Shown here piece after piece: positions 1,609 through 38,005 of a DNA stretch of 64,000 bases. The stretch lies in sequence record PQ341120.1; one strand, 5' to 3'. The stretch's first letter is position 1. Every line of letters begins with the position of its first letter. Source of the DNA: Escherichia phage EAWsc9. Both the position numbers and the translations under genes were made by a program. Under the pieces are notes generated by a model that did no database searches, was not told the DNA's origin, and worked only from the letters and a program-made list of their open reading frames with translations.

Positions 1609-1636
1609 ATAAAAAAGGGACTCCGAAGAGTCCCTG
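1609..1636 (-). terminator. rho-independent terminator
   Basis: hairpin GGGACTC-TTCG-GAGTCCC followed by T-run in minus sense. Confidence 0.7.
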
Positions 1637-1639
1637 AAC

Positions 1640-1801
1640 TTATGCTTTCGGCTTACCAAAGCAAGCTGCATCGGCACGCAATACCGCACGAGCACGAGCC
1701 TGAAGTTTATCAGTCACCTGATTGATTCGCTTGTTGGACGCACGCTTGTAACCAGCGCGTTTGGAGGAGCCATCAACAACTTTAACTTCTTTCTTAGCCA
1801 T
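1640..1801 (-). CDS. small highly basic protein, 53 aa (MAKKEVKVVDGSSKRAGYKRASNKRINQ...)
   Basis: ATG-to-TAA ORF below the 60-aa track cutoff; terminator directly downstream. Confidence 0.5.
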   Translation of the reverse strand: MAKKEVKVVDGSSKRAGYKRASNKRINQVTDKLQARARAVLRADAACFGKPKA

Positions 1802-2199
1802 ATTAAATTCTCTTTAAAATAGAATGCAGGACTTATTGGCATTGCCTGCGCAAGCCCTCGAAGGGAACATTAGGTTTCGGATATTTAACGACAGGATAAC
1901 CATAAACCTCGTCATCATACCTTATAGCTCTTATCTGTTGCACACCGTTAGCTTAAAGGTTCCGGGTTCGATTTCTCGAGGATAAGATATATACTGATGG
2001 ATATATAGGCCTTGAGGCGTACTCCCGATTGGCCATCACCTCGGGGTAGCATGCACTTGCCGCTATAAGAATAACATTCAAGAGGTACACCGTAAAATTG
2101 CCGGGGTCTTAAAACTATAATGATTCGCAAATCATTAATCAGACGGTTCGACGGCTCCTCGATTTTCTAGCCGCACTAAGGTAGCGAATCACCTACAGC
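1802..2199. other. ORF-free, comparatively GC-rich intergenic region with several short hairpins; candidate structured RNA or regulatory region
   Basis: no credible ORF across about 395 bp in an otherwise gene-dense genome. Confidence 0.35.
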
Positions 2200-2454
2200 T
2201 TACTTCAGGGTTACGACAAAATGGCGAACAGCTTTACGGGCAGCAGATGCCAGCGGCTTAGCAAATTTCAGTTCATCTTTTGCTTCGAGCACTGCGCGAA
2301 GGTCGGTTTGAACCGGGTTAAGATGTTTGAAATACTGCAGAATTTCCAGTGCTTCGGCTTCAACATCAATAGATGCGCCGTAGTTTTCGTGACCGTTATT
2401 CCATGCAGTGCGTTGCAGTTCGAGAGCGTGTTGTAATTGTTTGTTTAAAGACAT
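2200..2454 (-). CDS. rIII: rIII lysis-inhibition accessory protein, 84 aa from the SD-preceded ATG (track ORF 2200..2523 is over-extended)
   Basis: size and position next to gene 31 as in T4; GAGG SD 9 nt before ATG. Confidence 0.6.
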   Translation of the reverse strand: MSLNKQLQHALELQRTAWNNGHENYGASIDVEAEALEILQYFKHLNPVQTDLRAVLEAKDELKFAKPLASAARKAVRHFVVTLK

Positions 2455-2625
2455 TTTAGAAGCCTCAATATGAGGTGAATATTTGGTGGACACGTTCTTC
2501 TGAATTTCACTTCCTTTCGGCAAGTCTCTCAGTTGTAGTCCACCGTTTAGGATTAGCTAACCCCATACACCAGCAAAGCTCTGTATGACATCAACCAATC
2601 CATATTATTATTTATAACGCTAATT

Positions 2626-2973
2626 TTACTTATAAAGACAAGGAACGGCTTTATAATGACAGGTCACAAATTTTTGCTTAACTTCTTTAGCCTGCTTAAG
2701 CCCCAGAGCAACCAGAGGATGTGGAACGTTTGCAATCTTGCCAACCGGAAGAGGAGTCAAATCACCTACTTCGCAGAATCCTTCAGGAACATCCGGACCA
2801 ACCGAAAATACTTCACACATCTCCGGGATTTCACCCTGATGGAGTTTTCCGATAACGATGCCTGATGCCGTAGTTTCTTCATCACCAGCTTGCTTTGGCT
2901 CAGAAACCAAAATAATATATTCACCTACTGCTTTAATTGGTAATTCCATATTTAATCCATGTTGTTTGGTCAT
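2626..2973 (-). CDS. 31: gp31 co-chaperonin (GroES-like) for capsid folding
   Basis: near-identical to remembered T4 gp31 ([16 protein letters not shown]...[16 protein letters not shown]); start uncertain (M1 or M9). Confidence 0.9.
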
Positions 2974-17686: not shown

Positions 17687-18107
17687 AAGTTGCTTTAATC
17701 AGTGCAATGACTTCTGCCGCATTTTTATGATTTACCTGCACATGAATGGTTTGGGTATCAACAGGTGCATCGCCATCAACTTCTGCCGCATTTTTATGAT
17801 TTACCTGCACATGAATGGTTTGGGTATCAACAGGTGCATCGCCATCAACTTCCAGGAAGTGACAGAATTCCCATCCAGCGAGTTCAAAGTACTCATCAGC
17901 ACCACCCATACTATTCAGGATGGTGCCATCTTTCATTTCAACTTTTTCAACAAAATAATCACCTTCAATATAACACATATCCAGGACTTTGAAGGAATTG
18001 CCATGTTGTTCCATCAACCTGACCATGCACGAATTGTCATCAGGACTATCAGCGATGAATTGTTTTTTGGCAGCGGGGTCTAATACGTAAAATTTACCAG
18101 TTTCCAT
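17676..18107 (-). CDS. hypothetical protein, 143 aa, carrying a perfect 23-codon tandem duplication
   Basis: track ORF; paralogous to 18457..18819 (shared D(D/E)YFEL and C-terminal motif). Confidence 0.6.
   Translation of the reverse strand: METGKFYVLDPAAKKQFIADSPDDNSCMVRLMEQHGNSFKVLDMCYIEGDYFVEKVEMKDGTILNSMGGADEYFELAGWEFCHFLEVDGDAPVDTQTIHVQVNHKNAAEVDGDAPVDTQTIHVQVNHKNAAEVIALIKATFGV
17712..17849. repeat. perfect 69-bp direct tandem duplication (2 copies), in frame
   Basis: 17712-17780 is identical to 17781-17849. Confidence 0.9.
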
Positions 18108-37393: not shown

Positions 37394-37534
37394 TTACCAA
37401 ATTAACGAATGTACTGCCATTATAACATCAGAAATAAAAAGCACAACCTGCACTAATGCAAATACAACTCCATAATACAGCGCTACCAATAAGGCAGCAA
37501 GGGCTAACGAGTAGCCCAAGATTTTCTTAATCAT
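37394..37534 (-). CDS. small membrane protein A, 46 aa (MIKKILGYSLALAALLVALYYG...)
   Basis: overlaps upstream ORF B (ATGATTAA); hydrophobic. Confidence 0.45.
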   Translation of the reverse strand: MIKKILGYSLALAALLVALYYGVVFALVQVVLFISDVIMAVHSLIW

Positions 37535-37679
37535 TTTTATCCAATAATTTAAATAGTGTTAAAGTCGCTAATACACCTTGAGCTGTTGACTGCAGAAATA
37601 CTGAAGTTTCTCCAGTTATTAATGTTCCAACAAATAAAAATGACCAACAGAAAAAAGCTACGCCATGAACAAATTTCAT
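37527..37679 (-). CDS. small membrane protein B, 50 aa
   Basis: hairpin plus GAGGAAAAT SD upstream; hydrophobic. Confidence 0.45.
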   Translation of the reverse strand: MKFVHGVAFFCWSFLFVGTLITGETSVFLQSTAQGVLATLTLFKLLDKND

Positions 37680-37680
37680 A

Positions 37681-37735
37681 TTTTCCTCAAGGGCGTCCAA
37701 AGACGCCAGTTAATTTCAGATTATGACGATACCAT
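37681..37735. repeat. copy 1 of about 55-bp repeat R1 (GC hairpin + CTTGAGGAAAAT); copy 2 at 37945..38005
   Basis: near-identical sequence at the two positions. Confidence 0.85.
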
Positions 37736-37789
37736 TACAGCGCTACAGGCAGCAAGGGCTAACGAGTAGCCCAAGATTTTCTTAATCAT
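37721..37789 (-). CDS. 22-aa peptide A' (MIKKILGYSLALAACSAVMVSS), truncated duplicate of A
   Basis: first 13 codons identical to ORF A; looks like a signal peptide with lipobox-like LAAC. Confidence 0.4.
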   Translation of the reverse strand: MIKKILGYSLALAACSAVMVSS

Positions 37790-37944
37790 TTTTTCACGTA
37801 CCGTGCCAGACTTACAATTCCAGAAATAACCCATGCAATAAACATCGCGCCCATGAAAAATGTGCTTGGAGTCCAGACTCCCAAAAAGAAGCAGACTGAA
37901 CAAACCACGGCAATAATAAGTTCAATAAAAGCCAGAATAATCAT
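37786..37944 (-). CDS. small membrane protein B', 52 aa
   Basis: same upstream hairpin/SD module as ORF B; hydrophobic. Confidence 0.45.
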   Translation of the reverse strand: MIILAFIELIIAVVCSVCFFLGVWTPSTFFMGAMFIAWVISGIVSLARYVKK

Positions 37945-38005
37945 ATTTTCCTCAAGGGCGTCCAAAGACGCCAGTTAATTTCAGATTATGACGATGCCAT
38001 TGCAT
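37945..38005. repeat. copy 2 of repeat R1
   Basis: TTTTCCTCAAGGGCGTCCAAAGACGCCAGTTAATTTCAGATTATGACGAT(A/G)CCATT. Confidence 0.85.

Follow-up and report, generated by a model that had tools for sequence, protein, structure and literature searches.

The spacer that separates rIII from 30.9 in Escherichia phage EAWsc9 contains an element, referred to here as module B, that is almost certainly a genuine, selected, structured RNA. On the evidence of sequence comparison, module B is a non-coding domain that is predicted to fold independently, and no matching RNA family was found for it. It is read in the sense of its flanking genes, occurs in single copy, is present in some and absent from others among close relatives, and resides at two unrelated loci. 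In the favoured model, which has about an even chance of being right, B is a self-contained RNA whose invariant core would bind a conserved partner.

The spacer between rIII and 30.9

The window, the whole 64-kb stretch of EAWsc9 DNA that was analysed, comes from a T4-like phage of the genus Gaprivervirus. Over the region of interest, its sequence shares 99.9% identity with Escherichia phage pEC-M719-6WT.2 and ~97% with Shigella phage SP18. The genes here all run on the minus strand, in the order cd, 31.2, 31.1, 31, rIII, the gap, 30.9, an intrinsic terminator, and 30.8 (Table 1). The first-pass annotation described the gap as an unusually long spacer devoid of ORFs, and this description proved accurate. 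The curated annotation of SP18 has 68 intergenic gaps in 50 kb, with a median of 14 nt; the equivalent gap, at 397 nt, exceeds all the others, of which the longest is 139 nt. The ORFs inside the gap are short (<=60 aa), and none of them is conserved between genera. Automated GenBank annotation places spurious small "hypothetical protein" ORFs over the RNA region, several records call a "1,4-alpha-glucan (glycogen) branching enzyme" there, and others leave it blank.

The features that first drew attention to the gap fared differently from one another. The reported GC enrichment is weak: the GC content is 43.5% in the gap versus 40.5% in the window, 19% of 398-nt windows equal or exceed the gap, and the flanking genes are richer in GC than the gap (48.8% for 30.9 and 45.5% for rIII). 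The "T-loop-like" string GGGTTCGATTT lies on the plus strand at 1964-1974, antisense to the 3' strand of helix Pd and the 5' strand of helix Pe. Its plus-strand flanks are unpaired, and its minus-strand counterpart forms part of Pd and Pe. The two quoted hairpins, CCCTCGAAGGG and GCAGGC...CCTGC (H1 and H2 in Table 1), are present, conserved, and covarying. In other words, the GC content and the T-loop string were uninformative as cues, and the idea of a structured RNA was right and is far better supported than the sequence alone showed. Among the proposals put forward at that stage, that of a structured RNA in place of a gene is upheld and that of an origin-like region is not; a small stable RNA and a 5' UTR regulatory structure are each possible, for different parts of the gap.

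Table 1. Positions of genes, transcription signals, and predicted RNA features in the window, and of type-2 copies of module B at the second locus
Feature	Position	Strand	Details
Gene 31	2626-2973	-	
Sigma-70-like site	2636-2607	-	overlaps late promoter motif
T4-type late promoter motif TATAAATA	2609..2616	-	upstream of rIII
rIII	2200-2454	-	stop codon 2200-2202
rIII-30.9 gap	1802-2199		398 bp, exactly from 30.9 start codon to rIII stop
R hairpin	2172..2186	-	CGCUA-CCU-UAGUGCG; just past rIII stop
C' hairpin	2119..2136	-	AAUGAUU-UGCG-AAUCAUU; perfect 7-bp stem
Module B	1921..2069	-	149 nt, P1 5' strand to P1 3' strand
P1 5' strand CUUAUAGC	2062..2069	-	pairs with GCUAUAAG, 1921-1928
P1a 5' strand GGC	2059..2061	-	pairs with GCC, 2008-2010
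Invariant internal-loop strand AAGUGCAU	2051-2058	-	directly after P1a 5' strand
Pa	2017..2050	-	long hairpin; conserved bulges C, A, AA; apical hexaloop UGAUGG, 2033-2038
Pb	1988..2007	-	7-bp hairpin; hexaloop CCAUCA, 1995-2000, 6-bp kissing with Pa hexaloop
Pc 5' strand UCUUAUC	1981..1987	-	pairs with GAUAAGA, 1929-1935; closes three-way junction with Pd and Pe
Pd	1968..1979	-	4-bp hairpin; GAAA loop (GUAA, UAAA or longer U-rich in relatives)
Pe	1936..1967	-	including loop and junction; ACCCG, 1963-1967 / CGGUGU, 1942-1947
Pe loop GAACCUUUAAGCUAA	1948-1962	-	15 nt, near-invariant
Junction strand GCAACA	1936-1941	-	with Pe and Pe loop, most conserved core
Module M	1873..1913	-	H-type pseudoknot GAC-G-AGG [UUUAUGGUUAU] CCU-GUC ... 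AACC
H1 hairpin	1855..1865	-	CCCU-UCG-AGGG; overlaps invariant GAGGGCUUGCG, 1849-1859
H2 hairpin	1826..1849	-	GCAGG...CCUGC; length variable
H3 hairpin	1807..1825	-	AUUCU[AUUUUAAAG]AGAAU; read from sequence
Gene 30.9	1640-1801	-	start codon 1799-1801
Intrinsic terminator GGGACUCUUCGGAGUCCC + U-run	1616..1635	-	after 30.9
Type-2 B, Yersinia phage JC221	L101:894-1054		
Type-2 B, Klebsiella phage Olmo	L103:1793-1951		other loci with type-2 B: L104-L107

The fold of module B

Module B is closed by P1 and opens into a four-way junction (P1, P1a-Pa, Pb, and Pc) with zero unpaired nucleotides between the arms. Pc leads into a three-way junction with Pd and Pe, and the hexaloops of Pa and Pb pair mutually over 6 bp. 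This loop contact could form within one molecule or between molecules. The sequences of the helices drift among homologues. The internal loop, the bulges, the Pe loop, and the junction strand remain nearly invariant.

Each helix shows its own pattern of substitutions. All six counted pairs of P1 are changed on both sides, giving combinations such as UAUAGC/GCUAUA, UAAAC/GUUUA, and AUUAG/CUAAU. P1a was independently predicted by RNAalifold and is 100% paired; its third pair is mostly C-G and is U-A in the divergent member L079. The lower stem of Pa has compensatory changes at 9/10 pairs, with 99.5% of alignment cells paired. The total length of Pa stays constant at 12-13 bp despite changes in the length of its sub-helices, which fits a geometric constraint on the loop-loop contact. 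Compensatory changes are found at 5/7 pairs of Pc (for example, UUCUAUC/GAUAGAA and UUCGUG/CACGAA) and at 4/4 pairs of Pd, which is 100% paired. Pe was likewise predicted by RNAalifold, and 3/5 of its pairs are compensatory after the addition of divergent members.

The kissing helix between Pa and Pb is 100% paired, and three of its six pairs covary (31 sequences). Six distinct cognate hexaloop pairs were found: UGAUGG/CCAUCA, CGAUGG/CCAUCG, CUAUGG/CCAUAG, CAAUGA/UCAUUG, UGCAUU/AAUGCA, and UGUAUU/AAUACA. Every one of them is Watson-Crick at 6/6 positions (partner permutation, 0.0002). Two further sets of contacts were considered by eye and rejected. For additional tertiary pairings between J1 or J2 and the Pe loop, the candidate pairs are lost in some lineages. 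A GNRA-receptor contact with module M conflicts with members in which the Pd loop is not a GNRA loop.

Covariation evidence

Homologues of B were gathered by exact-pattern scans of IMG/VR and metagenomes, from rIII-anchored loci, and by BLAST. When 29 distinct sequences were simply aligned with MAFFT, RNAalifold alone recovered P1, P1a, Pa, Pb, Pc, Pd, and Pe. A covariance model, R1, then added divergent members (L079, Erwinia phage Cronus, Yersinia phage JC221, and Pseudotevenvirus/Slopekvirus phages), resulting in a final set of 38 distinct homologues and 44 nested pairs. The structure read by eye from the MAFFT alignment had 97.2% of cells paired compared to 27-40% with the partners slid, and the final set had 97.3% compared to 25-43%, although such cell counts overstate the number of independent events because many of the sequences are closely related. 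A sturdier measure is the number of pairs with several pair types. Compensatory changes on both sides were present at 33 of the 44 nested pairs versus 5-9 in slid controls, and every helix of B contains compensatory pairs among the 38 homologues. The covariation score was 0.434 versus <=0.074 for slid partners, and 0/500 shuffles reached the observed values. Alignments based on a covariance model favour that model; the uncurated MAFFT alignment agrees with them.

R1 scores 187.5 bits at B and detects a single copy in the 64-kb window. Folding of the single B sequence also recovers the helices (z = -1.93). The thermodynamic z-scores of the whole gap are uninformative (-0.41 for the minus strand and +0.68 for the plus strand). 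The G-U pairs in B exist only when the minus strand is read. These strand-specific pairs indicate that the functional strand is the minus strand, which is the sense strand of the genes.

Distribution of module B

Module B is present in 403 GenBank phage records, with one copy in each, and is never annotated as an RNA. These are phages of Klebsiella (158 records), Escherichia (129), Shigella (27), Enterobacter (27), Yersinia (18), and others. In IMG/VR, 19 of 47 rIII loci contain B according to the model. B is nearly unchanged in phages of Escherichia, Shigella, Klebsiella, Enterobacter, Yersinia, Citrobacter, Serratia, Erwinia, and Edwardsiella. In Tevenvirinae, rIII and 30.9 flank B on the same strand in 40/40 loci, with the rIII stop 12-138 nt ahead of B.

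B is better conserved than the proteins encoded around it. The identity of B between EAWsc9 and Klebsiella phages is 94-95.5%, and the corresponding proteins are 67% (gp31), 76% (rIII), 72% (gp30.9), and 63% (gp30.8) identical. Likewise, B is identical at 154/154 positions among SP18, Ge15, and U115, and the gp30.9 of Ge15 and U115 is just 70% identical to that of EAWsc9. The higher identity of B points to strong constraint together with horizontal exchange. The near-identity across genera could in part reflect recent horizontal transfer and not selection alone.

The presence of B varies within single genera: Ge15 and U115 carry it and T4 does not, and SP18 carries it and VR7 does not. The T4 searches with the model covered the rIII-30.9 region and the tRNA region, and B is absent from the T4 rIII-30.9 spacer, which displays a clean empty site at the junction of TTGAATGT and GAATGATGACG. 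The T4 uvsY-uvsW spacer is 55 nt long. In VR7-type phages, the precise site at which B is inserted elsewhere is filled by an alternative cassette of ~52 nt, ATTTTGTACTATCACGCGTCAGAAAAAGGTTATCTGTCTAAGTCGTGGTTG (loci L003 (VR7), L053, L055-L058, L061, L063, and L073). The inner stem of this cassette covaries (CAGA/UCUG versus CAGC/GCUG), and a related element with the outer stem GCUCUA/UAGAGC is found in L070, L078, L095, and EcS1. In one metagenome contig (L049, QZLZ01027750.1), B is intact but H1 joins directly onto an internal part of 30.9, and the 5' part of that gene and its ribosome-binding site are missing; either a natural deletion or a fault of assembly may account for this.

A second locus downstream of uvsY

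Diverged copies of B scoring 79-92 bits are located downstream of uvsY/uvsY.-2 in Pseudotevenvirus, Slopekvirus, and Yersinia phage JC221. These type-2 copies were found in 20 GenBank records (JC221 and 19 records of Pseudotevenvirus or Slopekvirus). Their helix and loop sequences differ from those at the rIII locus, and the invariant core is the same. The shared core consists of GGCAAG-N-GCAU, CCU-NNN-GGCC, and ACC(C/U)GGA(A/C)CCUUUA-N-GCUAAC(G/A)GUGUGCAAC. The long non-coding stretch around type-2 B also contains R-like and H1-like modules. About 150 nt after type-2 B there is a bidirectional terminator, followed by the convergent uvsW.1/uvsW. Thus, no same-strand gene lies downstream of type-2 B, and this is the main argument against B being a leader or riboswitch dedicated to 30.9. 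Furthermore, the clean empty site in T4, the variable order of modules described below, and the second locus together indicate that B is an autonomous, discrete cassette.

The other RNA modules of the gap

A comparison of the gap with those of SP18, VR7, Ge15, T4, U115, Klebsiella Jiaodavirus, the Edwardsiella phage PEi20, the Enterobacter phage PG7, and EcS1 revealed a chain of modules. In EAWsc9, their order on the minus strand from 5' to 3' is R, C', B, M, H1, H2, and H3. T4 contains R, C', M, H1, H2, and H3 without B. In Klebsiella and Edwardsiella phages, M and R are both upstream of B instead of flanking it; in other words, B is found on either side of M depending on the genus. The long spacer after rIII is thus a mosaic of exchangeable RNA modules. 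Modular evolution of this kind is known in these phages for promoter cassettes, and no description of it was found for RNA domains.

Hairpin R adjoins B in Klebsiella phages and in JC221, and it shows covariation by eye (CACUG/UAGUGUG in T4). The stem of C' is conserved in Gaprivervirus, Dhakavirus, and Tequatrovirus. Module M occurs in T4, where it is unannotated, and in most T-even relatives. In a positional count, 85% of its cells are paired versus <=50% when slid, and compensatory changes occur at 3/5 pairs of stem 1 and 2/5 pairs of stem 2. Its loop and downstream partner covary as GUAGUU/AACUAC, UGUGAG/CUCACA, and AGGUU/AACCU. A crude run-length test of M in this AU-rich sequence was not significant. 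The autoregulatory leader of T4 gene 32 also forms an H-type pseudoknot, tens of nucleotides upstream of the start codon (PMC3014915). M and the gene 32 element are both H-type pseudoknots in T4-type mRNA, but they differ in sequence and in the gene concerned, and the likeness concerns M and not B.

H1 is conserved in T4 and in Klebsiella and Edwardsiella phages, and it takes the form CCUC-UUA-GAGG in locus L025. The string GAGGGCUUGCG covers the 3' half of H1 together with the H1-H2 linker; it is invariant from T4 to Klebsiella/Edwardsiella phages, and the hairpins around it drift. The base of the H2 stem covaries (GGGAG/CUCCC, GAGAG/CUCUC, and GGGAAC/GUUCC). H3 probably occludes the Shine-Dalgarno region of 30.9 just upstream of the ATG, and an H3-like pairing, UCUCC...GGAAGA, is seen in other genera. 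Modules M and H1-H3 look like a leader of 30.9. R, C', M, H1, H2, and H3 would then constitute an ordinary structured 30.9 leader that is common to T4.

B is probably transcribed within the rIII-30.9 mRNA, as suggested by the gene orientation and by the promoter and terminator motifs. Transcription would proceed from the late promoter upstream of rIII, and from promoters further upstream, to the terminator after 30.9. On the minus strand of the gap itself, there is no sigma-70-like site, no late TATAAATA motif, and no MotA box.

Searches for known families

A search of Rfam 15 yielded no match over the gap at E <= 10 (window) and none over B in five divergent relatives at E <= 5. The first-pass annotation had been unable to recognize a tRNA or a group I intron in the gap, and both rejections hold. 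ARAGORN finds no tRNA or tmRNA gene in the 64 kb, and there is no Rfam tRNA match at E <= 10. There is no Intron_gpI match either; B is intergenic and 149 nt long, and its helices are unlike a P3-P8 pseudoknot. A relationship with rnaC/rnaD of T4 was rejected, as R1 reached at best 3.6 bits in the T4 tRNA region with filters off. A PeSL promoter-terminator cassette was rejected because the gap has no promoter-like site on the minus strand and B is single-copy. A repeat element was also rejected, B being unrepeated in the window, where the repeat families are early-promoter/terminator cassettes located elsewhere.

No sign of host mimicry or antisense was found, as 5,426 E. coli genomes contain no similarity or complementarity to B. 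One invariant 20-mer of the B core has no occurrence in any of 185,579 bacterial species genomes. A literature search that included exact sequence strings found no description of B. According to a 2010 review of post-transcriptional control in T4, neither a riboswitch nor a trans-acting small RNA had been characterised in this phage group (PMC3014915).

Likeness to known RNAs

Which known RNAs does B resemble? Like the lysine and purine riboswitches, it has a P1 closing helix of free sequence, invariant junction nucleotides, and neighbouring arms joined by kissing loops (6 bp in B), and in Tevenvirinae it lies upstream of a same-strand gene. However, it has no sequence or covariance-model similarity to them, no conserved expression platform, and no metabolic gene context that hints at a ligand, and its type-2 copies have no downstream gene. 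Two ribozymes offer another comparison. In the hairpin ribozyme, a four-way junction aligns adjacent arms side by side, and the Varkud-satellite ribozyme combines a kissing loop with two junctions in about 150 nt. The resemblance of B to these ribozymes appears to be architectural only, with no homology and no identified cleavage site.

The phi29 pRNA and ROOL/GOLLD are phage-borne structured RNAs whose loops pair intermolecularly. Each hexaloop of B can pair with the other but not with a copy of itself, a geometry that would allow head-to-tail multimers. Unlike the case of phi29 pRNA, T4-type packaging requires no RNA, and unlike ROOL/GOLLD, B is much smaller and has no Rfam match. T4 species 1 and 2 (rnaC and rnaD) are, like B, small phage RNAs (about 120-140 nt) within a longer transcript, but they belong to a tRNA-cluster locus and have no similarity to the B model.

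Possible functions of module B

In the favoured model, the invariant core of B would specifically bind a partner, itself conserved among Enterobacterales or the T4-like phages that infect them. Candidate partners are a protein, another RNA, or a small molecule. B would act alone as a scaffold, decoy, or sensor and not as a leader dedicated to 30.9, and cleavage in the AU-rich sequence on either side may free it from the mRNA. A cis role upstream of 30.9 is possible, and the position of B in 40/40 Tevenvirinae loci counts against the autonomous reading. Taken further, B could be a cis-acting sensor (a riboswitch or a protein-binding operator) controlling the translation or stability of gp30.9, perhaps with gp30.9 itself as the ligand. 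Besides this constant position on the same strand, the P1-closed multi-helix junction with its invariant core is aptamer-like, the ribosome-binding site of 30.9 is within a hairpin, and gp30.9 is small and very basic (it has no Pfam family and no PDB relative and belongs to PHROG 1427, function unassigned). The type-2 copies without a downstream gene argue against such a sensor. Furthermore, both the distance from B to 30.9 and the modules that lie in between vary by genus, leaving no conserved expression platform across the genera compared; T4 retains 30.9 and its leader without B; and one metagenomic contig has B with a 5'-truncated 30.9. A cis sensor therefore seems quite unlikely. A catalytic role, in which B would cleave itself or catalyse some other reaction and so process the polycistronic transcript between the upstream gene and the rest, is also rather unlikely. 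Small ribozymes are common in phages, and variable helices around invariant unpaired junction nucleotides, with a tertiary loop-loop lock, are a pattern typical of ribozymes in general. B is moreover found in two unrelated transcripts and always within a long non-coding stretch. Against this, its 149 nt exceed most self-cleaving classes, no Rfam ribozyme family matches it, and its sequence allows no inference of a cleavage site.

B lies directly 3' of a coding region in both contexts, and its compact fold is knotted by kissing loops, as would suit a passive stabiliser that guards the rIII or uvsY.-2 mRNA against 3'-to-5' exonucleases or scanning by RNase E. However, protection does not need ~60 invariant unpaired nucleotides, terminator hairpins are already present downstream in both contexts, and T4 manages without B, so that a purely protective function is very unlikely. 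There is only a slight chance that the region holds no RNA element at all and is instead a decayed protein gene, a mobile element acting at the DNA level, or a replication origin. The presence and absence of B between close relatives, the clean empty site in T4, the short inverted ends CTTATAGC/GCTATAAG, and the small ORFs called by some annotators could be taken in that sense. The "inverted ends", however, vary by compensatory change like the other helices, and B is single-copy in the 403 records and thus unlike a spreading repeat. A coding gene in relatives with frameshifted remnants in EAWsc9, the outcome that the first-pass annotation set against its own proposal, is not what was found. 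There is no conserved ORF, six-frame ORFs differ between genera, substitutions follow the pairing, and the indels seen in EcS1 (+4, -2, and +7 nt) are not triplets, which excludes a reading frame. An origin is not supported, given the G-U wobbles confined to the minus strand, a cumulative GC skew that runs through the gap without inflection, and the second copy type at an unrelated locus.

A broader proposal, with somewhat less than an even chance, is that B may be the first of a new class of phage-borne functional RNAs. B would be either a new ribozyme or else a decoy or scaffold for some conserved factor of the host or the phage, such as a nuclease, a component of translation, or an immune sensor, and it would be exchanged horizontally as an accessory "RNA gene" by T4-like phages of Enterobacterales. 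If this is true, no trans-acting structured RNA with a defined role would have preceded B in the T4 group. Few viruses have been studied as much as T4 and its relatives, the fold of B is of ribozyme or riboswitch grade, and many of the phages that carry it were isolated for therapy. The natural presence/absence pairs within genera make the function of B directly testable.

Repeats elsewhere in the window

Several repeats were observed outside the gap. A perfect 69-bp tandem duplication with identical head-to-tail copies lies at 17710-17847 (family D10). At 37492-38004, there are near-identical segment pairs (47 nt at 100% and 64 nt at 97%) spaced 255-265 nt apart (D11 and D16), which suggests a tandemly duplicated small gene or cassette. 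Early-promoter/terminator cassettes of the form GTTTACA/TGTACA ... CATAAT, some of them within stem-loops, recur at 1536-1642, 9320, 17354, 18839, 35806, 40254, 50804, 62081, and other sites. The promoter-type repeats make up families D1-D9 (for example, 1536-1610). They resemble the PeSL elements of T4-like phages (PMC4122927). Since these cassettes repeat, GenBank matches appear at "2-4 places per record".
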